Shown piece after piece: positions 1-17,770 of a stretch of 64,000 bases of DNA. Made by a program: the position numbers and the translations under genes. This DNA is from Calditrichia bacterium (GTDB lineage: Bacteria; Calditrichota; Calditrichia; RBG-13-44-9; J075), in the NCBI GenBank assembly GCA_050633245.1, contig JBOEGD010000012.1, forward strand, positions 1 through 64,000. Direction: 5' to 3'. The notes under the pieces were generated by a model. That model was not told where the DNA came from, did not search any database, and saw only the letters and a program-made list of their open reading frames with translations. How positions within the stretch are numbered: position 1 is the first letter of the stretch; each line of letters opens with the position of its first letter.

Positions 1-2590
1 CCGTTTCATCACTGCTGCTGCCAACATCTAAGCTAATGTCATCAAAGAACCACTCATCTGTTGTCGCATTCGTTGCACCACTACGGAAGCGGAACTGGAA
101 GGCAGCATGATAGGCATCTGCAGGTAGTGAAAAGCTGACCAGCTCAAACGGCTCGAACAAGCCAAAGCCATTATCGGTTCCGATAAACTCATTTAAGAGC
201 AACCAGTTGCCACCAGCGTCGGTGTATTCAAGGAACACACTCTCACCAATTTCAAGATCGTGCTCGGATTCCTGCATCGACAGCGTCACGCTACTCTGAG
301 CGCTTAGGTCAATCGGGTTGGTTGACAGCGTCTGATCCGAACCGTTTACAGAAACGAAATACGGTGCAGACGGAACCGGGAATGGGAAGGTGTTAAACGA
401 AACACCATTGGTATCGATCACTGCAATATTAGCAGAGGCACCCCACTTCGCCGGATCGATAACGCCTGAATCAGGCCAGGATTCGGTGAATGGGAACGGT
501 GCGGCTGCTCCGATAAAGATCGAATCGGTATTGGATGCCAGACCTTCATTGAGTGTATACTGTGCGGCTGCATAGTAAGTCACTGTTGTGTTGGTCGGTG
601 GATTGGCATCTGTATAGCTCAACACGCTGTCAGGTGTCATAGCGATCTGAGAAAAGGTTACGCCATCTTCACTACGATATACATTGTAACCGGTAAGGGC
701 GGAGGTGCGTGGTGTTGGCAGACCGGCTTTACTGTGAGAAACACCACCAAGCAGGTGCTCGATCTTCTCCAGTTCAGTCGGATTGGCAAACGTCGCCACA
801 TCCAAGGAAGCAGTCGCAAGACCAGTAAGGTTGCGCTCCTTCACATCGCTAAGCTTGGAGGAGGTGCCATCAGAATACAGCACGCGAATGCGAGCATTCG
901 GGCCAGATCCTTCCTGAACAACCACGCGCAGGATGTTGTTACGTGCAAGACCGGCATTCACATTGGCAATCACATCCCAGGCAATACCCAGAGTTGTCGA
1001 CTGCACCCATGAACGAAGGTTGTCACGACTGTCAATATCCGAACCCAAACCAATGGCAGAATCAACCGGTTCAACAACAGACACAAAGAAGTCACCTGCG
1101 CTGATGGTTACCGCACCGGCGGACAGATCAAAATTATCAAAATCGACGTTGCGATTTACAATCGGATAGTTCCCGCTGAAAAGCTGAGTGCCAGGACCCG
1201 CTGTATCACCGTCATAAATACGAACTTCCGTGGACTGCATCGTATCGCTACCGGCAGGAACGCCTCCAAACAACATCTGGGCTTCCAGAATCGTTGTCGG
1301 ATAAATTTGCGGAGTAAAACGAACCGCCAACTCACCGTCATTTCCACCACCGATACTTAGCGTACCTTCACTGGTACCATCATCATAACCAAGAAACGGC
1401 TCAGGAAGTGGTGCATTCCAGGACAGATCAGCTGTAAAACCAGCTGCTTCAGCAACAAAGCCGATCGGCGGGTTGTTCTCTACCTGAGACGGTGCATCAA
1501 GTGAGATATCATCGATATACCACTCATCTACAAAGTCACCAATATACACCCAGGCGATGTAAATATTCTGACCTTCATAAGCTGAAAAGTCGCGCACATT
1601 GGCTTCCCACACGTCTTCTGTGGAAGCAGCCAGGCTGTCGACTTCTACAAAGTCACCATCAGCAGGGTTACCGCTACCGGTGGACACATACAGTGCGTGT
1701 TTCTCATAGAAGGAAGAAAAGTTAATGTTCTCGAAGAACACCAGCTCAGCACCGGCGCCCACATTGTTAATCAGCGGGGACACAAACCAGCTACTGTCGG
1801 TTAGATCCGCATCAGCAAAATTCGCTGAGTAGATCGGAGAGTTCGCACGAAGCGTCGTCAAAACAAGGGTATCAACACCTGTGTGATACTCCGTCCAGCC
1901 GGCTGGTGGCCAAACGCCACTTTCCATATCTTCGCTGAAGGGATAGTCGAGAACAACAGGAGGAATTTCAACCGATACATCGTCAATATACCACTCATCT
2001 ACGAAGTCACCGGTATAGAGCCAGGCGATATAAACATCTTGTCCATCATAAGCAGACAGATCAACAACTCGCTGTTCCCAAACATCTTCAGTGGAAGCAC
2101 CAAGACTATCAACTTCTACAAAGTCGCCATCAGCAGGGTTACCACTCCCGGTAGAAACCCAAAGGCCGTGATACTCATAGAAAGAGGAAAAGTTTATATT
2201 TTCATAGAAAATTACGCCGGATCCGGCTTCAAGAGCAGTAATCTGAGGCGTTACCAACCAGCTACTATCCGTGAGGTCAGCGTCAGCAAAGTTTGCTGAG
2301 TTAACCGGGGAGTTAGCTCGCAGGGTTGTTAATACAAGTGTATCAACACCTGTGTGGTACTCTGTCCAGCCAGCTGGCGGCCATGTACCACTTTCAAAAT
2401 CTTCAGAAAGTTGAGCAGATTTCGAAATAGATCGAATCGGCTTTTGTTTCTGTACATACGAATCAGACTCACTCTGCTTTATTGCGAGTTTTTGTGCATA
2501 GGACAACTCGTCCTTGGCAAGCACAAATCCGCTCATAAAGATAAGTGAGCATAAAATTACCATGAAAGCAGTACCGCATCTCATACTCAT
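1..2590 (-). CDS. Large secreted adhesin-like protein: two tandem cleaved-adhesin/choice-of-anchor-J-like domains, an FN3-like domain with an insertion, and a further beta-sandwich. The 3' end is beyond the window edge and the gene is absent from the ORF track.
   Basis: ATG at 2590 preceded by AAGGAG. Hand translation gives MSMRCGTAFMVILCSLIFMSGFVLAK (signal peptide), EDFESGTWPPAGW...WLVTPQI...YIAWLY...WYIDDVSV twice, and ADLSWNAP...LTGYNVYRS...SYTD. I saw no stop codon down to base 1. Confidence 0.85.
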   Translation of the reverse strand, partial: MSMRCGTAFMVILCSLIFMSGFVLAKDELSYAQKLAIKQSESDSYVQKQKPIRSISKSAQLSEDFESGTWPPAGWTEYHTGVDTLVLTTLRANSPVNSANFADADLTDSSWLVTPQITALEAGSGVIFYENINFSSFYEYHGLWVSTGSGNPADGDFVEVDSLGASTEDVWEQRVVDLSAYDGQDVYIAWLYTGDFVDEWYIDDVSVEIPPVVLDYPFSEDMESGVWPPAGWTEYHTGVDTLVLTTLRANSPIYSANFADADLTDSSWFVSPLINNVGAGAELVFFENINFSSFYEKHALYVSTGSGNPADGDFVEVDSLAASTEDVWEANVRDFSAYEGQNIYIAWVYIGDFVDEWYIDDISLDAPSQVENNPPIGFVAEAAGFTADLSWNAPLPEPFLGYDDGTSEGTLSIGGGNDGELAVRFTPQIYPTTILEAQMLFGGVPAGSDTMQSTEVRIYDGDTAGPGTQLFSGNYPIVNRNVDFDNFDLSAGAVTISAGDFFVSVVEPVDSAIGLGSDIDSRDNLRSWVQSTTLGIAWDVIANVNAGLARNNILRVVVQEGSGPNARIRVLYSDGTSSKLSDVKERNLTGLATASLDVATFANPTELEKIEHLLGGVSHSKAGLPTPRTSALTGYNVYRSEDGVTFSQIAMTPDSVLSYTDANPPTNTTVTYYAAAQYTLNEGLASNTDSIFIGAAAPFPFTESWPDSGVIDPAKWGASANIAVIDTNGVSFNTFPFPVPSAPYFVSVNGSDQTLSTNPIDLSAQSSVTLSMQESEHDLEIGESVFLEYTDAGGNWLLLNEFIGTDNGFGLFEPFELVSFSLPADAYHAAFQFRFRSGATNATTDEWFFDDISLDVGSSSDET
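1505..2405 (-). repeat. Intragenic tandem duplication, two units with a ~471-bp (157-aa) period
   Basis: gtatcaacacctgtgtg occurs at 1869 and 2340. ttctacaaagtc(a/g)ccatcagcagggttacc and ataccactcatctac also recur in both units. Confidence 0.85.
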
Positions 2591-3064
2591 AGTAATCGCT
2601 CCTTGTGTTAGGTGGATGTAAACCAATAATGATATTGGGGTAAAAATAAACCTTAATTTTCCAGTCATTTCCGCACTGATTAACGGCATGAATTATTGCA
2701 CAGCGTGAAAGCGCTGTAAAAACTGATTTCAAATAGAGGAGATAAATAACAAGATGCCAGCAAAGTCCCTTTTCAGCAGGAGGCCTCCAAAGACCAAAGT
2801 TCCTATTCCCAAGTAATAGAATTATTTCATCAACTTTTTAGGTATTGTGCAATCGGTTATCATTAATTTTTGAGGCAAAATTATACACGATGATATGATT
2901 ATTAATGATGTTAAGGCGTAGTATAAAATACACTTAAGCCGTAATTCAGACTACATTTATGGAGCAATGCTTACAAATATACCGGAAATTAAGAAAAAAC
3001 CAAACTTTTTTACAAATTGAACTCAAAAAGATTACAGAACGATAAAGTCCGCTTTATTCAGCCA

Positions 3065-4192
3065 TTAACTTCCCTTCTTCTTACGCCTGCGCTCTCTTCT
3101 TGACGAAGTTATCAAGGCATGTTTTTTTAGTAAAGCATATTCATGTTCAAAGTTTGGTGTCAACACTCCCTTACCTATCTGCTGCTCAATTTCAGCCTGT
3201 TTCCAGAAGCGCCCATCCTCCAGTTCCTGTGGATTAATTCTAAAAGGGCCCTGATCGCGCAATAGAAAGGCATGAACCAACTCGCTCTCTAGCTCGGTCC
3301 GATTGATGTAGCGAAACAAAGCTTGAAAACGTTTTCCAACGATTCCGAGTTCTTCCTCTGCTTCACGATACAGTGCCGCCTCAATTGCCTCTCCACTATG
3401 CACATGTCCTCCGACAGCAGTATCCCAATAGCCTGGCAACAAATCTTTTGTCTCAGCACGCTTTTGTAGAAAAACATCACCTGCAGAGTTAATAATGTGA
3501 AGATGCACAACCGGATGCAGTAGGTTCGGATTGCCGTGTACCTGGCTTCGTGGCGCACGACCTATGATCTTCCCATCGGCGGAAACAAGGTCGAACCACT
3601 CTTCTTCTGCAATTGCCCTCCTGCGGCTTCTTATTTGCCAAAATTCATAGAGCATCAAAATCCCCATCGCAATATAAAAAAGCCCGCCACTGATAAATCC
3701 CCACGCCTCATTACTCATATAAAACGCTGAATAAATAATTAGCACTACGTGTATAAGTAATAAATAAAACATGCTGCGCATCATGCGCCGCATTTCGGTA
3801 AACTGCTCTTCGGAGAACTCTACACCACGAGTATAGCGCCCCATCATGTTAAGCAAGATCGGCGTACGGGAAAAGGTCGTTATGCCAAGCAACACAACCA
3901 GAATACCCTCAATGAGGGCAGGCTTTAGCTTAAAGAAAATATCATTTTGCAGCAGCAGGGAAATCAAGCCGAGGGTCACAATTAATCCAACATCGAACAA
4001 AACAAAACGGTCGATACGATTTTCGCGAACATAAATGTAGAGGATCTCGACCAGGCCGAGCGAAATAGCTACAATGAGTCCTATAGTAAGTCCAAACAAG
4101 GCATCAGCAACAATAAAAACCAGCAGCGGAAGAAAACCGATGGCGAGATTTTTTAGCAACTCTTTGCGTTCGAGCATAGTTCTCCGACTCAT
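3065..4192 (-). CDS. YciB/IspA-like membrane domain fused to a NUDIX hydrolase (IDI/YfcD-like)
   Basis: Multi-TM N-terminus (GFLPLLVFIVAD...FFKLKPAL). C-terminal HPVVHLHI, LQKR and Nudix box GGHVHSGEAIEAALYREAEEELG. Start placed at ATG 4192; 4177 is an alternative. Confidence 0.8.
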   Translation of the reverse strand: MSRRTMLERKELLKNLAIGFLPLLVFIVADALFGLTIGLIVAISLGLVEILYIYVRENRIDRFVLFDVGLIVTLGLISLLLQNDIFFKLKPALIEGILVVLLGITTFSRTPILLNMMGRYTRGVEFSEEQFTEMRRMMRSMFYLLLIHVVLIIYSAFYMSNEAWGFISGGLFYIAMGILMLYEFWQIRSRRRAIAEEEWFDLVSADGKIIGRAPRSQVHGNPNLLHPVVHLHIINSAGDVFLQKRAETKDLLPGYWDTAVGGHVHSGEAIEAALYREAEEELGIVGKRFQALFRYINRTELESELVHAFLLRDQGPFRINPQELEDGRFWKQAEIEQQIGKGVLTPNFEHEYALLKKHALITSSRRERRRKKKGS

Positions 4193-11348: not shown

Positions 11349-13415
11349 TTATTTCATTTCGGCAATCTGCTTTAACATATCTTTTGGATTTTGAAAGTCT
11401 GGATCCAACTCGATAGCCTTTTTATACGAAGCAATGGCCTTTTCTTTTTCTCCGGTTGCCAGATAAAACTCTCCAAGACTATCTCGAAGATTTGCCACCT
11501 CCGGATTCAATTCAACCGCCACACTCAGCAACTTAACCGCAGCAGCGGGCTGGCCAAGTCCACCAACACGATAGGCAAGGTTATTTAGGTTGTTCTGATT
11601 GGCAGGGCCTCGTGAATCGAGCTCAACTGACTTTCTCATATTCTTCGCGCCAGATTCTCTACTCCCCAGTAATACATCCACTATTCCATAAGCGCCAAGA
11701 GCTGTCGCCGAATTGGGATACTGCTCAGCTCCAAGTTTTGCCAGGGCATAGGCCTGCTTGGGGTTCACGACAAAAGCCTCCTGGACCATTTGCCATATCT
11801 GCCCTGAGTAATCCGGCACTAAGGCGGAGTTTCCATATTTATTTTTGTACTGGCTTTCCAGCATCTTCACATCAGAGTTTGCTTTTATCTCGAGACCACC
11901 GGAATTTTGCAAGGATTTCCAATTTGCATTCCATGCCTTCAACTTCGCGGCAACTGATGGTTTAAATTGATGGCTTGTCGGTACATCGGCTCTTCCTGCA
12001 ACCGCAGCATGATAGGCAACAGCCATTTCCAGAGGCGCCTGGTCGTAGATCAAAGGTAATTTCTTCGGCGCCAACCGGGCAATTTGCATAGCCATATACG
12101 AACCTGCTGTTTGCCAGGCTCGCTTACCAATGGCATTAGACCCGGCGTTAACGAGGTCAGACGTCAAATTATCATTGTTCAAAAGTGCAAATGCCTCGGC
12201 CACCCGAGCTTCATTTGAGTTACTGGCTTTTTTCTGCCAATCGTAGTAGGCCACGCCTTGATCAAGGCATTTTCGAAGAGCTGAGTGTAGCTGTTTGTCT
12301 CCCTCATTAGAGAAGTAGGGATTGGGTAAATTTCGATTTAATCCCAACATTTCATAGGCCAAAAAGCGCGAATATTTGCGCGGTGATGAGTTTTCTAAAT
12401 TACTGGCAACGGCGATCGTCAAATCTATTCCCGGAAAGTGTGCCAGGTCTGTTCGCGTCCCCTCCTGTGCACCACCATGCGCAACCAGATATCGCCCAGA
12501 TAGCCCGTCAACGCCCCATCCCATCGCATAGTAGGTTATTCGTCCGTCTTTAGTTGACATTGAGGTCCACATCTCATTGCGGGTAGCTTTTTCCAGCACC
12601 TTGCCTGCGCTAAGGCCTTTTGCAAAACGCACCATATCTGTTGCAGTCGCACGCGTCCCGCCACCCCCGATTTTTAAACTTGTACTAACCGGAACCGAAT
12701 TTTCGACCCGGTCGTTGCGAATTCGATAGCCCTGAACACGATCCGGAATAAGCTGATAAAGGTAGTCTACTGATGTATTGTTCATTTCCAACGGCTGCCA
12801 AACCTCACTTGTCATAAAATCCTGAAAACTCATACCTGAGGCACTTTCAATAATTGCCCACAACACGTTATAACCATAAGTTGTGTAGTTATACTCTGTT
12901 CCAGGTTCCGCCAGCAACTCCCAATCCTGAAATATCTGAAGGGCTTCTTCGGTAGTCATATCATTCACGGTGAGTGCTTCAGCAGAATAATTGCGATAGT
13001 GGCTAACGCCACCAAGATGTCCTAACAGCTGTCGGACTGTCAGTGGCCACTGTTTCCGCGGAAAGTTTGGGAGATAAGTTTGCACTTCAGCATCCAAATC
13101 GATCTTGCCCTGTTCTACCAATTCTAATATGCCCACAGCAGTCATCGGCTTTGAAACAGAGGCCATACGATAAGAAGACTTTTCTGAAGCCGGGGTTTTA
13201 TTTTCAAGATCAGAGAAACCATATCCCCGAGACCAGTGAACTTCTCCTTGCGAAAAGGCAACTGTTACCCCAACCAGTTGATTTTCTAAAATATCCGCTT
13301 GAATAAGCGCTTCCAACTTTGCTATAGCATTCTGATAGCGTGGAGGAATGTCAGTTGCCTCTTGTCCGATAGCAGGTATCCAAAAAAGCATAATTAGTAT
13401 CAGGTGTTTGCGCAT
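11349..13415 (-). CDS. Serine hydrolase (beta-lactamase/PBP-like family) with C-terminal TPRs
   Basis: SxxK motif (ASVSK), YNYTTYGY, HGG, a C-terminal TPR (DSLGEFYLATGEKEKAIASYKKAIELDP) and a signal peptide. Confidence 0.9.
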   Translation of the reverse strand: MRKHLILIMLFWIPAIGQEATDIPPRYQNAIAKLEALIQADILENQLVGVTVAFSQGEVHWSRGYGFSDLENKTPASEKSSYRMASVSKPMTAVGILELVEQGKIDLDAEVQTYLPNFPRKQWPLTVRQLLGHLGGVSHYRNYSAEALTVNDMTTEEALQIFQDWELLAEPGTEYNYTTYGYNVLWAIIESASGMSFQDFMTSEVWQPLEMNNTSVDYLYQLIPDRVQGYRIRNDRVENSVPVSTSLKIGGGGTRATATDMVRFAKGLSAGKVLEKATRNEMWTSMSTKDGRITYYAMGWGVDGLSGRYLVAHGGAQEGTRTDLAHFPGIDLTIAVASNLENSSPRKYSRFLAYEMLGLNRNLPNPYFSNEGDKQLHSALRKCLDQGVAYYDWQKKASNSNEARVAEAFALLNNDNLTSDLVNAGSNAIGKRAWQTAGSYMAMQIARLAPKKLPLIYDQAPLEMAVAYHAAVAGRADVPTSHQFKPSVAAKLKAWNANWKSLQNSGGLEIKANSDVKMLESQYKNKYGNSALVPDYSGQIWQMVQEAFVVNPKQAYALAKLGAEQYPNSATALGAYGIVDVLLGSRESGAKNMRKSVELDSRGPANQNNLNNLAYRVGGLGQPAAAVKLLSVAVELNPEVANLRDSLGEFYLATGEKEKAIASYKKAIELDPDFQNPKDMLKQIAEMK

Positions 13416-13550
13416 AAAGTTAATCCTCCAGGAATATTGAGCTCTGCGGAATTAGTATGAGTGGTTGATGCAGTCAGGTATGTAATAAAAACGTTTTAGG
13501 CGATGGATGCAAAAGAATGTTGTTGAAAAAGAATGATGTTGAAAAAGAAC

Positions 13551-13573
13551 AAAACCCCGCAGTCACTACGGGG
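13551..13573 (-). terminator. Intrinsic terminator of 13593-14069
   Basis: Minus strand reads GCCCGTAGTGACTGCGGGGTTTTGTTCTTTTT. Confidence 0.6.
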
Positions 13574-13592
13574 CTAGTTCAAAAAGATGAGC

Positions 13593-14069
13593 CTACTTTC
13601 TGTATACAAGCACATTTTCGTAAATGGAATTGAATTCATCTTCATCGATTTCAACCGTTAACTTGTTCTTGTCTCGGGGAGCCCTCAACGCGTCAAAATC
13701 TATGTGTTGAAGATGTTCCCGAATCGTTGCGTTGTCTTCGAACCGATGCTGACGCTCTAAAAAGCCCAGAGCCCATTGGTTATTCATTTTAGTCAGTGCA
13801 ACCAAAGCAAGGCGTCGAACCTGCGTATCTTCATGATTACGAAAGACGCGCATTACATCAAAGACGGCTTCTCTAACATCAAGTTTTCCATCATACCGAA
13901 TAACCAACTGCATGGCGGATTGCTGTAAACCAGGCTTTTCAGATTTTAATGCAAGAACAACATTATCACTGAAGATCTTCCAGCGATCTTCTCCGGCATG
14001 TAGTGAATGGAAGCTTAGCGTTATAAATATGGCAGCGAGTGCCAACAAGATAGTACGGCGGTTTTTCAT
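13593..14069 (-). CDS. Exported helical (HEAT-repeat-like) protein of unknown function
   Basis: Signal peptide MKNRRTILLALAAIFITLSFHSLHA, HEAT-like segment EDTQVRRLALVALTKM, and RBS AAAAGGGA. Confidence 0.8.
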   Translation of the reverse strand: MKNRRTILLALAAIFITLSFHSLHAGEDRWKIFSDNVVLALKSEKPGLQQSAMQLVIRYDGKLDVREAVFDVMRVFRNHEDTQVRRLALVALTKMNNQWALGFLERQHRFEDNATIREHLQHIDFDALRAPRDKNKLTVEIDEDEFNSIYENVLVYRK

Positions 14070-14123
14070 GGCGAATCCCTTTTAAGATAGTTTATAAATA
14101 AAGTTACTGTGGCGTAATCTTGC

Positions 14124-14150
14124 TTACGGAGAAATTTTATGATGGTTACA
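14124..14150 (-). promoter_or_regulatory. Putative ECF-sigma promoter for 13593-14069
   Basis: Minus strand TGTAACC (14150-14144), 15 nt, CGTAA (14128-14124). This matches the general ECF AAC/CGT pattern. Confidence 0.55.
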
Positions 14151-14170
14151 AAAAGACTGGTTTTAGGCAT

Positions 14171-14230
14171 AAAAAAAGTGCCTGACCGCCACAGTCAGGC
14201 ACTTAAAAGGGATTCGCCACATAGTGACGA
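14171..14230 (-). ncRNA. Putative ~60-nt antisense-acting sRNA: 5' hairpin, anti-SD stretch and terminator
   Basis: Sequence UCGUCACUAUGUGGCGAAUCCCUUUUAAGUGCCUGACUGUGGCGGUCAGGCACUUUUUUU. It has its own promoter and terminator, and 14202-14219 is the exact reverse complement of 14069-14086. Confidence 0.7.
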
Positions 14231-14235
14231 GATGA

Positions 14236-14264
14236 ATTATAGCGAATGAGGACTTAAAACTCAA
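14236..14264 (-). promoter_or_regulatory. Sigma70-type promoter for the putative sRNA
   Basis: Minus strand TTGAGT (14264-14259), 17 nt, TATAAT (14241-14236). Confidence 0.7.
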
Positions 14265-14621
14265 TTGCTAAAAGAAATAATTTATTAAGCCCCTTTTAAC
14301 CGCCAGCCTGCCAAGCTGTTTCCAAACAGCCGCTCAACACAACAGACCTCCCCCTGAACGCTATGCTTTAGCATCAAAACTTTAGCTGTTTTTTCTAAAT
14401 TGATTTTTTTTAAGAAGACCGCCAATATCCTGTGACACTTTCGTGATAAAATAGTCAATAGAGACTTTTTCGGGCTTTTGAAGAGCTTCAAAGCAATCGG
14501 TAGAAAATAGTTCATTTTCCAAATTGTTCAAGATCTCCGTGACATCCTCGTGATCTTCTTTTCACACATTTGGAACAGATTTTCAAATAAACCAACCCAT
14601 TAGTTTAACCGTTTTGAAAGG

Positions 14622-15554
14622 ATGTATCTCATGTTGAAGAAGATTCTGTTATTAAGCTTTGTCTCGCTATTTGCATTTTGGGGATGTTCTAATGAAGACT
14701 CGATTCTGTCTTCAGACAGCCCGATTACCGAAAGCAGTTCCAGTAGTCAGGATGATATTACTGTTGAGCAGTCTGCATTTAATTCACAGCTCGAAGCAGA
14801 GATTGCTTCCGAGAGCGAAGACATTACGTTTACCGCAAAATTTATCAATCGTATTGATGGCCCAACCGTAATTACCGAGCCGGGATTTTATCGCGTTACA
14901 AAAAACTTTAGTGTTACTGAAGCCGGAGCAGATGCGATCGTTATTCAGTCTGACAATGTTTTTCTTTCTCTTGGCGGACATACAATAAAAGGCCCGGGTA
15001 ACAAAGACGGTCGTGGTATCGTGCTTGATAATGTTCGGAATGTACTCGTAGCAAATGGACGATTGAAAACATTTGGTATAGGCGTGGTTATGGATGGCAC
15101 AATCCGTTCCGCGGTAAAAGGGATTAAAACCGTTGGTGGCGATGAGTTTGCCGATCCGCCAAATGGTGTCGCACCCCAAATTGGTATTATGTTGATCAAC
15201 AGTTACCGAAACTATATCTTGTGGAACACCTACCGCAAAGTAAACCTCGGTATCTTCGTCCGCGGTGGCAACAGCTTTGAAAATCGCATTCTCAATAATA
15301 CGGCTCGTGCCGGTGATAATGGATTGTTGGCAATCTGCTATAACCCGGCTCCCGGCGGTGATCCGGCTGGACCGCATGATGATGTTGTTCGCGGCAATAA
15401 CCTGGTTCGCTTTGGTGTTGGCATCTCTGCAAGCGCTGAATCTACGAACAATTACTTCGTACGCAATCGCATCCGCTTCTTCAACGATGATTATGTTGAT
15501 GCAAACGGCAGCAATGTATTCGAGAATAACAACTCGCGTCAAATTAATCCCTAG
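14622..15554 (+). CDS. Lipoprotein with a right-handed parallel beta-helix (pectin-lyase/NosD-like fold)
   Basis: Lipobox FWGC, a Ser-rich linker, ITEPGFYRVT...DNVFLSLGGHTI, and repeated GI.L / NRI..N strands. Confidence 0.8.
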   Translation: MYLMLKKILLLSFVSLFAFWGCSNEDSILSSDSPITESSSSSQDDITVEQSAFNSQLEAEIASESEDITFTAKFINRIDGPTVITEPGFYRVTKNFSVTEAGADAIVIQSDNVFLSLGGHTIKGPGNKDGRGIVLDNVRNVLVANGRLKTFGIGVVMDGTIRSAVKGIKTVGGDEFADPPNGVAPQIGIMLINSYRNYILWNTYRKVNLGIFVRGGNSFENRILNNTARAGDNGLLAICYNPAPGGDPAGPHDDVVRGNNLVRFGVGISASAESTNNYFVRNRIRFFNDDYVDANGSNVFENNNSRQINP

Positions 15555-15640: not shown

Positions 15641-17770
15641 TTACTTCATCAATACCATCTTACGCGACGTTGTAAAATTACCAGCCTGAAGCTGATAGAA
15701 ATACGTACCGGATGCCAATTCAGCAGCATTAAACGTAAACTGATGCTCTCCTGAAGTCAGGTTTCCATCCACTACCGTTGCAACCTGCCTTCCCTGTAAA
15801 TCAAACACCTTCACCGTAACCTGCCCCGGAATAGCCATACCAAAACTGATCGTTGTTGAAGGATTAAATGGATTGGGATAATTCTGCTTCAGAGAAAAGT
15901 TCTCCGGTAATGCTGTATTTTCATCACCAAACCCCAGCGGTGTTCCTGTTACAATGGGAAGAATAATCTGCGAAGGAAATGCGGCACTGCGCTGCATGTC
16001 AAGAACCGGTGTTCCGCTTGTTGGAATGCGTTCAAAAGTGTCCGCATCATGTCCGGCGATGGCCACGCGAATGCGATGGCCCGGCTCCAGCATTACTGAT
16101 GTCGGTTGCAAAGTAAAATGTAGTTCCACAATCTCATTTGCCGGAATAGGAGCACCATCAGCTGCCAGGTAACTATGATAAGGTCCAAACTGATGATATG
16201 GCGGTGTACCATTGCTTACCTGACGGTGTAGCGCTCTGAGTATTCCTTCGGTGATATACGTAACGCGACCATCCGGAGCAACGTCTTCCAGGTAGGCGAT
16301 AAAGGTGCCATCACTCTCGGAAGACCGCACAAACAACTTCACTTGTGGATGTCCGGTAATCTCCAGATTCTCCGTGAGAGGCTCAGAGGTATAGGTCAAC
16401 AGCTTCTGATCTTCAAACTGACGATCGGTAATTAGCTTATCATTATCCTGCAGCCAACGACCGCCGACACCGGTTGTAGCAGTAAAGTCCACGGTATAAC
16501 TGTCGAACGCATCGCTACTTTGTGAAGGATTCTCAGCAAGTTTGCCGTCAGCACTAAAAAAGAGCGTTTCGTTAACAACATCTGCCGGAGGCCAAACGTC
16601 TGTCGTTTTCCAGGCACCTTCATTCAACGTATAGTATAGAATTTGATTTTGAGCCTGTGGCGGCGTGGTCTCTTTTAAATACGGTGCCATGAAGGCCTCG
16701 AGCTGAACATATTGTTCTTCCACCGAGACACTGTCTATACCGCCAGGATGAAATGGGTCGAGTGCATCTTCCGAACCATGCCCCCAGGGACCAATTACAG
16801 TGAACTGTGGATTAGAGAAAGTATGGAAACGCGTCAACACGCCATTAGCCGTACCGGCATCAAACCAGCCGGCTTGTGCAAAATAAGCGACGCCACTTTG
16901 CTCGATGTCCTGTCGAAAGGCGTATGGGCTAAAGTCTTTCATTTCAACACTGCCAAAAAGATCGTCTTTATACACAACGGATTGAATCGCATCGCCAACA
17001 ACCAAATTGTTTGCGTGTTGTAAGATTGCTTCATCCAACATGGTTCTATCCGGATCTGCATCAACCGGACGAACGCCGGAAACGATAAACTCTTTTATAG
17101 ACGGACAATCACCGGGGTCTGCACCAACGACCCCACAAATATCATTGGCATCCAGCAATTCATTAAATTCTGACCAAGCCTGAACAAACGTTACGTTCTT
17201 AACACCACCGGGAATAGCCAGATCTAAATACGGATCAAAATCCGAGAAATGTGGTGCAATCACTTTTACCTCGCTCCGTCCAACCGAACCGGTAAACTCC
17301 GCAGTGTTTCCATCATATGAGACGCCAAAAGAGCCGATTTTAGAATTGCTCCAGTTTTGTGCCGCTATCCAGTCGCTAACCTCACCGAGATCATTGATTT
17401 CATCACCAGACCAAGGCGATGTTCTACTGCCAAAAGAAGCTCCGGAGCCACGAGCATCGACTACGACAAAAGCATAGCCAAATGTATTCCAGAATTCACC
17501 TTCCAAAGCGGTATCATCGTCGATGAATTGTGGATTGATAATATCGAATGCTCGCCAATAACGGGTTGAACGTATAACGGCCGGAATTTGTTGTCCAGCC
17601 GTTATCTGCGGTAAGAAAACGTCAACGGCTACCTTTACGCTATCCGGCATGGTTATGTAAATACTTTCACGAGAACTCGTTTGGGCGGTAAGGCGATTAG
17701 ACCAAACCAAAGTTAATAGAACTGCTACCAAAAGTGGCAGAGCACAAGACTTTACAATTTTCATTTTCAA
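15641..17770 (-). CDS. CocE/NonD-family (S15-like) hydrolase with T9SS-type CTD
   Basis: DARGSGASFG, nucleophile motif GVSYDG, GPWGH, PepX_C-like domain (GHRIRVAIAG) and QNYPNPFNP. Confidence 0.9.
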   Translation of the reverse strand: MKMKIVKSCALPLLVAVLLTLVWSNRLTAQTSSRESIYITMPDSVKVAVDVFLPQITAGQQIPAVIRSTRYWRAFDIINPQFIDDDTALEGEFWNTFGYAFVVVDARGSGASFGSRTSPWSGDEINDLGEVSDWIAAQNWSNSKIGSFGVSYDGNTAEFTGSVGRSEVKVIAPHFSDFDPYLDLAIPGGVKNVTFVQAWSEFNELLDANDICGVVGADPGDCPSIKEFIVSGVRPVDADPDRTMLDEAILQHANNLVVGDAIQSVVYKDDLFGSVEMKDFSPYAFRQDIEQSGVAYFAQAGWFDAGTANGVLTRFHTFSNPQFTVIGPWGHGSEDALDPFHPGGIDSVSVEEQYVQLEAFMAPYLKETTPPQAQNQILYYTLNEGAWKTTDVWPPADVVNETLFFSADGKLAENPSQSSDAFDSYTVDFTATTGVGGRWLQDNDKLITDRQFEDQKLLTYTSEPLTENLEITGHPQVKLFVRSSESDGTFIAYLEDVAPDGRVTYITEGILRALHRQVSNGTPPYHQFGPYHSYLAADGAPIPANEIVELHFTLQPTSVMLEPGHRIRVAIAGHDADTFERIPTSGTPVLDMQRSAAFPSQIILPIVTGTPLGFGDENTALPENFSLKQNYPNPFNPSTTISFGMAIPGQVTVKVFDLQGRQVATVVDGNLTSGEHQFTFNAAELASGTYFYQLQAGNFTTSRKMVLMK

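Follow-up and report, generated by a model that had tools for sequence, protein, structure and literature searches.

Why should a bacterium place a short, apparently separately transcribed RNA directly in front of a gene whose ribosome-binding site (RBS) that RNA could cover? This question is raised by a locus in a Calditrichia bacterium (NCBI GenBank assembly GCA_050633245.1, contig JBOEGD010000012.1, positions 1 to 64,000 of the forward strand). The 64,000 nucleotides (nt) analysed are called the window, and all coordinates of the module are positions in it; the genome to which the window belongs, G000, comprises 6.3 Mb and is 97.1% complete. The module occupies a gap of 550 nt between a divergent gene at 14622 on the plus strand and a gene for an exported protein of 158 amino acids (aa) at 14069..13593 on the minus strand. 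A first-pass annotation, made by a model from the sequence alone, had read this gap as two promoters in tandem, the first giving a small RNA (sRNA) that silences the RBS of the gene driven by the second. That core reading has held up, in that two related loci keep the first promoter, both hairpins, the U-tract, the extracytoplasmic function (ECF) motif and both pairings, with compensatory changes. A separately promoted and terminated sRNA that pairs both with the Shine-Dalgarno (SD) sequence and start codon and with an element of the 5′ leader is supported by these comparisons. It is rather probable that this sRNA, driven by a sigma-70-type promoter, is an antisense RNA dedicated to the neighbouring ECF-dependent mRNA and that it blocks translation of that mRNA.

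Two complementary segments in one intergenic gap

All elements of the module are on the minus strand and are given here in the direction of transcription. The promoter of the sRNA, TTGAGT-17-TATAAT, lies at 14264..14236 (TTGAGT at 14264..14259, TATAAT at 14241..14236), where the earlier annotation had put it. In a consensus scan it agrees with the sigma-70 consensus at 10 of 12 positions, and it is the sole sigma-70-type match on the minus strand in 13400-14800. The RNA predicted to start from it is about 59 nt long (14171..14229), its 5′ end being placed from the -10 box and its 3′ end from the U-tract. It folds into a 5′ hairpin of 6 bp (CGUCAC-UAU-GUGGCG, 14215..14229), an open single-stranded segment of ten bases (AAUCCCUUUU), and a GC-rich intrinsic terminator of 11-13 bp (14176..14204) that runs into seven U residues (U7, 14171-14177). 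The minimum free energy (MFE) of this fold is -27.3 kcal/mol (z = -5.85; 0 of 200 shuffles fold as well), and no antiterminator alternative was seen in the 59-nt unit. Thus, the unit of about 60 nt with hairpin, exposed segment and U7 terminator that had been annotated is present, with a fold well outside the range of the shuffles.

The sRNA has two segments that are complementary to the neighbouring mRNA, and both had been noticed in the first-pass annotation. The longer, the anti-SD segment UGGCGAAUCCCUUUUAAG (14202..14219), the start of which is overlapped by the 3′ arm of the 5′ hairpin, is the perfect complement over 18 nt of the target site CUUAAAAGGGAUUCGCCA (14069..14086), which covers the SD sequence; the last base of this inverted repeat is the A of the ATG, i.e., the complementarity reaches the first base of the start codon. 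At up to 3 mismatches, the 18-mer occurs at two places only in the window, where 0.08 chance matches are expected, and no second copy of the 18-mer or of the module was found in the 6.3 Mb of G000. The shorter segment, ACUGUGGCG (14187..14195), comprises 2 nt of the 5′ arm of the terminator and 7 nt of its loop, and is the exact complement over 9 nt of CGCCACAGU (14106..14114) in the mRNA leader; none of 2000 shuffles of the leader reaches 9 nt.

How unusual such an arrangement is can be judged from the whole genome. Among about 22,500 candidate starts in G000, four have an upstream complement to the RBS of at least 16 nt, one of them being the sRNA locus, with the complement at -150. The other three (C37, ~1642; C45, ~6356; C26, ~46214 in the minus-strand index) have complements of 16-21 nt that lie 56-74 nt upstream; these may be leader hairpins that sequester the SD sequence, or artefacts of short spurious frames.

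The second promoter, TGTAACC-N15-CGTAA, is an ECF (SigW-like) promoter at 14150..14124 (TGTAACC at 14150..14144, CGTAA at 14128..14124) and begins twenty-odd bases past the terminator of the sRNA. Its -10 box places the start of the mRNA near 14119, which gives a predicted leader of about 50 nt (14070..14119) followed by the gene (13593..14069). The gene is monocistronic, with an intrinsic terminator at 13553..13575 that was found in a terminator scan. Promoter, short leader and exported protein are all where they had first been described. A hairpin, UUAC-GCCACA-GUAA (14104-14117), is predicted at the 5′ end of the leader, and it is the only one: the MFE of the leader is -3.7 kcal/mol, 184 of 200 shuffles are at least as stable, and the rest of the leader is predicted to be unstructured. 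As the leader is unstructured around the SD sequence, pairing with the sRNA could only mask the RBS and never unmask it, which points to repression.

The proposed mechanism can be described as a series of contacts. The near-consensus sigma-70 promoter would drive the non-coding RNA of about 59 nt, which would be released at its strong intrinsic terminator, and the ECF promoter would drive the mRNA of the 158-aa exported HEAT-like protein. First contact would be made between the terminator loop of the sRNA and its complement in the 5′-terminal part of the leader; the seed and the 3′ arm of the 5′ hairpin would then zipper into a duplex of 17-18 bp that covers the SD sequence and the A of the AUG. 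This duplex would exclude the ribosome, and the mRNA would probably be exposed to double-strand-specific decay. The protein would be made only when the ECF-driven mRNA exceeds the pool of sRNA, i.e., there would be a threshold. We infer from the sequence both transcripts with their predicted ends, the action in trans, the repression and the threshold behaviour. The sRNA is presumably constitutive, and the inducing signal may be envelope stress.

Recurrence and covariation in related bacteria

Homologs of the 158-aa protein are present in 33 of the 61 related genomes searched. A scan of contigs with the single protein found no relative; the relatives came with a two-sequence alignment, and the records in which they were found are labelled Calditrichia or Calditrichaceae. 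The 50 loci obtained include four duplicates (L048=L010, L050=L013, L055=L027, L056=L033), which leaves 46 distinct loci, and at each of these the region from -25 to +6 of the homolog was compared with its own 400 nt upstream. Three of the 46 have the module: the window itself; a 1-Mb metagenome contig, L039, in which the protein is 62% identical; and G007 (locus L010), the nearest of the related genomes, of the same family as G000 but of a different genus, in which the protein is 43% identical in full-length alignment (59% by tblastn over residues 30-131). The complement to the RBS is 18 nt at -150 in G000, 14 nt at -149 in L039 and 16 nt at -255 in G007, each unmatched in 200 shuffles. At the other homolog loci the best complement to the RBS is at most 10 nt (10 nt locally at -52 in L034 and at -62 in L019; 9 nt at -75 in L057).

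In the alignment of the three loci the blocks follow in one order: -35, -10, anti-SD segment, terminator, U-tract, ECF -35, ECF -10, and SD sequence with ATG. The sequence between the blocks has diverged, and the leader in G007 is about 90 nt longer. The sigma-70-type promoter is TTGAAT-17-TATAAT in L039 and TTGAGT-17-TACAAT in G007, that is, the positions of the hexamers and the spacing of 17 nt have been kept while the spacers have diverged; the ECF promoter lies between terminator and leader in all three. The three sRNAs fold alike, with z = -5.9 (G000), -5.2 (L039) and -4.6 (G007). All 17 intramolecular pairs form in each of them, and five show double-sided changes (2 of the 6 pairs of the 5′ hairpin and 3 of the 11 pairs of the terminator), in an alignment that was fitted to the covariance model and so favours structure; controls slid by one to three columns gave 30-44% pairing and no double-sided change.

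The same holds for the pairing between sRNA and mRNA, which shows five double-sided compensatory changes in total. In the helix of the anti-SD segment with the SD region, 18, 17 and 17 of 18 pairs form in G000, L039 and G007, respectively; column 7 is A-U in G000 and L039 and U-A in G007, and column 18 is G-C in G000, G-U in L039 and A-U in G007. In the helix of the terminator loop with the leader, all 9 pairs are formed at each of the three loci and the register (2 stem nt and 7 loop nt) does not shift, with double-sided changes in column 2 (C-G to G-U), column 4 (G-C to U-A) and column 6 (G-C to C-G). In G007, this second helix is formed by GGUUUCGCG with CGCGAAAUU (7 Watson-Crick and 2 G-U pairs). 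The first-pass annotation had named the upstream regions of homologs as the place to look for compensatory changes, and had held that absence of the paired repeats there would count against it: the paired repeats are present in L039 and G007, and both intermolecular helices have the compensatory changes. Because the pairing with the RBS has co-evolved in related bacteria, the regulatory RNA is very probably real.

Between G000 and L039, the 30-column bins that contain the sRNA (29/30 and 26/30 identical) are at the top of the 1-kb alignment, compared with 8-27/30 for the coding bins. A further close variant is found in a contig from run X2, with 62 differences and 24 gap letters over 814 nt. 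By eye, its promoter spacer differs while the -35 letters (ACTCAA on the plus strand) are kept at the same place, and its ECF spacer has a 1-base deletion and a 1-base insertion two positions apart, which leave the length unchanged. Repetition within the sRNA has fared less well: UGUGGCG does occur twice in the sRNA of G000, as had been annotated, but the duplication is lost in G007. A 19-codon frame from an ATG in the 5′ hairpin of G000 was considered as a coding alternative and rejected by eye, as L039 lacks the ATG and G007 has another frame.

Beyond these loci the sRNA appears to be confined. When 86 genomes of the phylum were searched with R2, a covariance model built from the three sRNAs, strong matches came only from G000 (E 1.5e-19) and G007 (E 8.4e-16). 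In the 17 weak matches inspected (L082-L098), downstream complements are at most 10 nt and none is at an RBS; these are plain terminators. A 16-nt IUPAC pattern with up to 2 mismatches gave, in the same 86 genomes, counts equal to those of the reversed-pattern control, and was set aside as noise. In positions 13500-14700 no Rfam release 15 family reached its gathering score, the best being an unrelated small nucleolar RNA model at 26 bits versus a required 43. The predicted element is, by these searches, a small-RNA family without earlier description. Judged from the same genomes, the module is a lineage-restricted addition, and the ECF or sigma-54 control of the gene family, described below, is older and wider. 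The neighbouring genes in G007 are unlike those of the window and L039; therefore, the sRNA travels with the gene for the 158-aa protein.

Trans action, cis action and other readings

Several findings weigh against a dedicated sRNA that acts in trans, or against parts of that proposal. The sRNA is missing at 43 of the 46 homolog loci. Only three lineages have it, and the RNAs of G000 and L039 are almost identical; all of the covariation thus amounts to one comparison, of G000 and L039 with G007. For the second helix in G007, 107 of 2000 shuffles of the leader (~5%) do at least as well as the 7-nt Watson-Crick core on its own. Whole-RNA duplex energies fail to separate cognate from non-cognate pairs (the cognate duplex of G007, at -54.1 kcal/mol, is inside the range of the shuffles, the minimum of which is -59.3), because the long interior loops that RNAduplex permits inflate all values. 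A look for RNA runs that contain the stretch returned none; among four sequencing runs compared with it, the only contig from a presumed RNA run is 175 nt long and maps to 13891-14065, within the gene for the 158-aa protein. Hfq (PF17209) has no match in the 97.1%-complete G000, where a divergent Sm-like protein is possible; the same control model matched 5 of 14 reference genomes. The sRNA itself has the feature typical of Hfq ligands, a U-tailed Rho-independent terminator after a U/A-rich single strand, in its U7 tail and in CCCUUUUAAG ahead of the stem.

For the kissing-loop entry that the first-pass annotation had suggested, there are findings on both sides. The covariation of loop and leader in a conserved register speaks for it; against it, minimum-energy folds leave only 3-4 nt open in the terminator loops, and a leader hairpin, though predicted for G000 and G007, is absent from the predicted fold of L039. 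The segment of the G007 leader that pairs with the loop lies in the 8-nt loop of a predicted 9-bp hairpin.

The most serious of the other explanations is that the element is a cis-acting leader. Transcripts that read through from the sigma-70 promoter would fold the anti-SD segment onto the SD sequence and be silent, only the shorter mRNA that starts at the ECF promoter would be translated, and the short RNA would be a by-product. In the predicted fold of the 190-nt read-through RNA (MFE -58.9 kcal/mol, z = -6.72), the terminator hairpin is stacked on the helix of anti-SD segment and SD sequence, i.e., the same helix would form in cis, and pairing alone is no proof of action in trans; the covariation of both intermolecular helices fits action in cis as well as in trans. 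What weighs against cis action as the sole function is the equipment of the element. Its strong terminator (11-13 bp, with U7 or U4CU3), which lies between the two partners, has been conserved with compensatory changes, and therefore little read-through is expected. The near-consensus promoter 7 nt upstream of the element has been kept in all three lineages, and it would be needless for silencing read-through. The terminator loop, a structure that serves termination, co-varies with the leader. For an attenuator, riboswitch or thermometer leader the observations point both ways: a read-through RNA would pair the anti-SD segment with the SD sequence, but the 59-nt unit shows no antiterminator alternative and a conserved ECF promoter lies 3′ of the terminator. 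Taken by itself, a purely cis-acting leader is unlikely; it may coexist with action in trans, and would then be a companion mechanism rather than a rival.

It is quite improbable that the sRNA is real but has its main role elsewhere (on many genes, or in binding a protein as in type III toxin-antitoxin systems), with the pairing to the neighbour being secondary. The first-pass annotation had called for a genome-wide search for other targets. When the 19-nt seed was set against 35,095 start regions of G000, the neighbour came first at -31.3 kcal/mol and the next start region followed at -23.5 (mean -9.1, sd 2.6), so that the neighbour outscores the other 35,094 by about 8 kcal/mol or more. A few other start regions do reach -21 to -23.5 kcal/mol. 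For the best large candidate among them, C1 (532 aa), G007 encodes an ortholog with 53% identity, the start region of which gives -8.6 kcal/mol with the G007 RNA versus -26.0 for the cognate pair; a second candidate that was tested has no clear ortholog in G007. A multi-target regulator was rejected on these grounds: the secondary candidates are weak, and the only one that has a clear G007 ortholog shows no complementarity in that genome. Since the neighbour is best by about 8 kcal/mol and the complementarity of C1 is not conserved, the sRNA looks dedicated to its neighbour, which it also accompanies in G007 despite the different surroundings. As for a protein-binding role, the order RNA, terminator, gene resembles that of toxIN as given in PMC4147584. 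Type III systems of the toxIN kind have an RNA repeat array and a cytoplasmic endoribonuclease; a repeat search found no direct repeats inside the sRNA, and the protein is an exported helical-repeat protein which, having a signal peptide, would not meet a cytoplasmic RNA.

Finally, a DNA-level element is highly improbable, whether the inverted copies are taken as paired operators of a DNA-binding protein that loops the DNA or as the two termini of a miniature mobile element: a concerted change of an inverted repeat such as that in column 7 is also expected of paired protein-binding sites, but the 18-mer and module are single-copy in 6.3 Mb, which does not suit a mobile element; the copies are spaced differently (115 nt in G000, similar in L039, ~220 nt in G007); of the 6 positions without a Watson-Crick pair, 4 are G-U when read on the transcribed strand, as RNA tolerates and duplicated DNA sites would not; a second, unrelated pair of segments co-varies, in the terminator loop; and one copy is exactly on the SD sequence and ATG, the other between promoter and terminator. 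A mobile element with 18-nt terminal inverted repeats was likewise rejected, the module being single-copy in the genome.

The dedicated antisense sRNA can now be compared with known systems. Type I toxin-antitoxin loci in which the antitoxin RNA is a non-overlapping neighbour of its target include zorO/orzO, shoB/ohsC and dinQ/agrB. The closest logic, going by PMC4147584, is that of tisB/istR-1 of E. coli: stress induces only the target and not the gene for the RNA (tisB responds to DNA damage, istR-1 does not), the two have separate promoters, IstR-1 shares 21 nt of complementarity with tisB, and RNase III takes part in decay. The likeness thus lies in a non-overlapping sRNA gene that adjoins its single target, in perfect complementarity of about 20 nt and in separate promoters. 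The differences are several. Pairs of the tisB/istR-1 type are divergent, whereas the Calditrichia module is a co-oriented tandem; the site of IstR-1 binding is a standby site a long way 5′ of the RBS, whereas the Calditrichia sRNA would cover the SD sequence and AUG and make a second contact by its loop; and the inducing system of tisB is LexA, whereas here it would be an ECF sigma factor. PMC2887945 and PMC11264685 describe type I targets as hydrophobic peptides of less than 60-70 aa, and a small, hydrophobic, membrane-active peptide is what defines such a toxin in the former; the 158-aa exported helical-repeat protein is nothing of the kind. The other mark of type I systems, an sRNA from the same locus that base-pairs with the mRNA, is found here in the predicted pairings of 18 and 9 nt, which co-vary in three lineages. 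Overlapping antisense RNAs encoded in cis differ in layout, since promoter, terminator and promoter are here in series on the same strand without overlap.

Kissing-loop antisense RNAs are known from plasmids and insertion sequences (CopA/CopT, RNAI/RNAII, Sok/hok, RNA-OUT/RNA-IN). In these, as proposed here, recognition appears to begin at a hairpin loop and to extend to a duplex that blocks initiation; they come from the opposite strand and are fully complementary, whereas the present RNA lies upstream on the same strand and is complementary over only 18 and 9 nt. Of these pairs, hok/Sok is treated in PMC4147584. The Calditrichia module has a further likeness to enterobacterial regulation, in that an ECF sigma regulon is tied to base-pairing sRNAs that block RBSs. 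MicA, RybB and MicL are sigma-E-driven enterobacterial sRNAs that require Hfq, have multiple targets and block the RBSs of mRNAs for envelope proteins. The wiring runs the other way round: in enterobacteria it is the RNA that depends on the ECF sigma factor, and its targets are genes with housekeeping promoters, whereas here a sigma-70-type promoter would drive the RNA and the ECF-dependent gene would be its single target.

In the open-access literature searched, no natural sRNA was found that is co-oriented with one ECF-dependent target and encoded directly ahead of it, nor was one found for Calditrichota. To our knowledge, nearly all described base-pairing sRNAs are from Proteobacteria and Firmicutes. 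In a 2022 survey (PMC9029176), a table has one annotated small RNA for Calditrichaeota. The nearest design is a synthetic one: according to PMC13769309, SUPER sRNAs are upstream sRNAs that act as post-transcriptional suppressors of leakage from an inducible device; they were engineered in E. coli, whereas the Calditrichia module is natural and co-evolving. If the proposed reading is true, its wiring is the leak-suppression logic that synthetic biology has built by hand, and a single gene of an ECF regulon is kept back by a co-oriented RNA of its own from a housekeeping-type promoter, which would be an unusual sharpening or delay of part of a stress response. The design of an adjacent, non-overlapping antisense RNA would then not be confined to peptide toxins, and if the HEAT-like protein is harmful when leaky, type I toxin-antitoxin logic would extend to a large secreted protein. 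It is possible, if on the doubtful side, that the locus is the first representative of a naturally occurring "gatekeeper" module, in which an sRNA from a housekeeping promoter lies head-to-tail with one gene of an alternative-sigma regulon, makes loop and seed contacts that co-evolve with RBS and leader, and sets a threshold on this one member of the ECF regulon, free of Hfq and in a phylum without a described base-pairing regulator. The locus offers candidate regulator and target together, each with predicted ends, and G000 and L039 versus G007 are a natural series of compensatory mutations; a heterologous reporter test is feasible without culturing the organism.

The exported protein and a candidate sigma factor

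The earlier annotation had described the target as a folded, exported protein and not a peptide toxin, and that description is supported: it has 158 aa and, by eye, an N-terminal signal peptide, and its AlphaFold2 model is confident (predicted local distance difference test, pLDDT, 88.5), entirely helical and HEAT-like, i.e., an alpha-solenoid. Its match to Pfam HEAT_2 is weak (E 0.031, below the cut-off), and NCBIfam gave nothing. Foldseek against the PDB returned alphaRep/ARM/CpcE-type and HEAT solenoid repeats, all with E of at least 0.04 and none at E <= 0.001. Two homologs, L049 and L057, are in records titled "Candidatus Brocadia sp." and "Bacteroidetes bacterium", and these are either contaminated bins or a sign that the family extends beyond Calditrichota. 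In L040, L041 and L049 the protein has 286 aa, about twice the usual length, and may be a duplicated or fused repeat protein; upstream of these three there is no ECF box, sigma-54 box or anti-SD complement.

The promoters of the family were surveyed in the 46 distinct upstream regions. The motif GnAAC-N15-17-CGTA within 250 nt of the start is present in 24 of them, versus 0.31 expected from shuffles, and a sigma-54-type box, TGGCA(C/T)-N5-TTGN, is present in 10, versus 0.06 expected; none has both, and 12 have neither in its strict form. Control by an alternative sigma factor seems to be a constant feature of the family. The sigma-54-type loci are L013, L024, L027, L028, L031, L033, L034, L043, L044 and L058, and several of these homologs sit, by eye, past the 3′ end of an apparent gene for an enhancer-binding protein. 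In two of them a segment directly after the TGGCA(C/T) core, at about -50 to -57, complements the homolog's own SD sequence: CTCCTTTTGA in L034 (10 nt; 0 of 200 shuffles) and TCCTTTTG in L027 (8 nt; 9 of 200 shuffles).

A candidate for the sigma factor that reads the ECF promoter can be found by the same box. In G000, it occurs upstream of 1 of 36 Sigma70_r2 genes, and the box there, TGTAACCAT.ATAAA...CGTAA, is near-identical to that of the gene for the 158-aa protein (TGTAACCATTATAAA...CGTAA versus TGTAACCATCATAAA...CGTAA). The best match of this sigma factor is to the NCBIfam SigW models, at 176 bits, which is under the equivalog cut-off of 209. Its ortholog in G007, 85% identical, has TGTAAC-N16-CGTA at the same place. 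The consensus of SigW promoters in Bacillus subtilis is TGAAAC-N16-CGTA, and the promoter of the 158-aa gene, counted from AAC to CGTA, is TGTAAC-N16-CGTA; the Calditrichia sigma factor is SigW-like only, orthology not being established, and its neighbour is LiaF-like or toast-rack rather than RsiW. The AAC and CGT(A) elements, 16 +/- 1 nt apart, are common to the target gene and the sigma gene, and this, together with the frequency of the motif among homologs and the same box at the G007 ortholog, supports the view that the promoter, earlier called only ECF-like, is of a genuine ECF (SigW-like) type.

The locus of the sigma factor (L079, G000:C30:39000-46000) has its two genes on the minus strand at 3110-3691 and 2247-3113. 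The sigma gene is followed by a gene for a 288-aa protein with weak matches to LiaF-C and toast-rack domains, a candidate anti-sigma factor or sensor, and a divergent gene for a STAS-domain protein lies upstream of it.

Returning to the window, two 16-nt direct-repeat boxes, GTGACA....TCGTGAT, are present on the plus strand at 14432-14447 and 14539-14554, between the promoter of the sRNA and the divergent gene, which encodes a NosD-like lipoprotein. Both are in the better-conserved bins of the comparison with L039 (20-21/30), and they may be a regulator site for the lipoprotein gene or for the promoter of the sRNA. Further along, at 15641-17770 on the minus strand, there is a gene for an S15/PepX-type peptidase with a C-terminal type IX secretion sorting domain, which is consistent with relatives in the FCB group.

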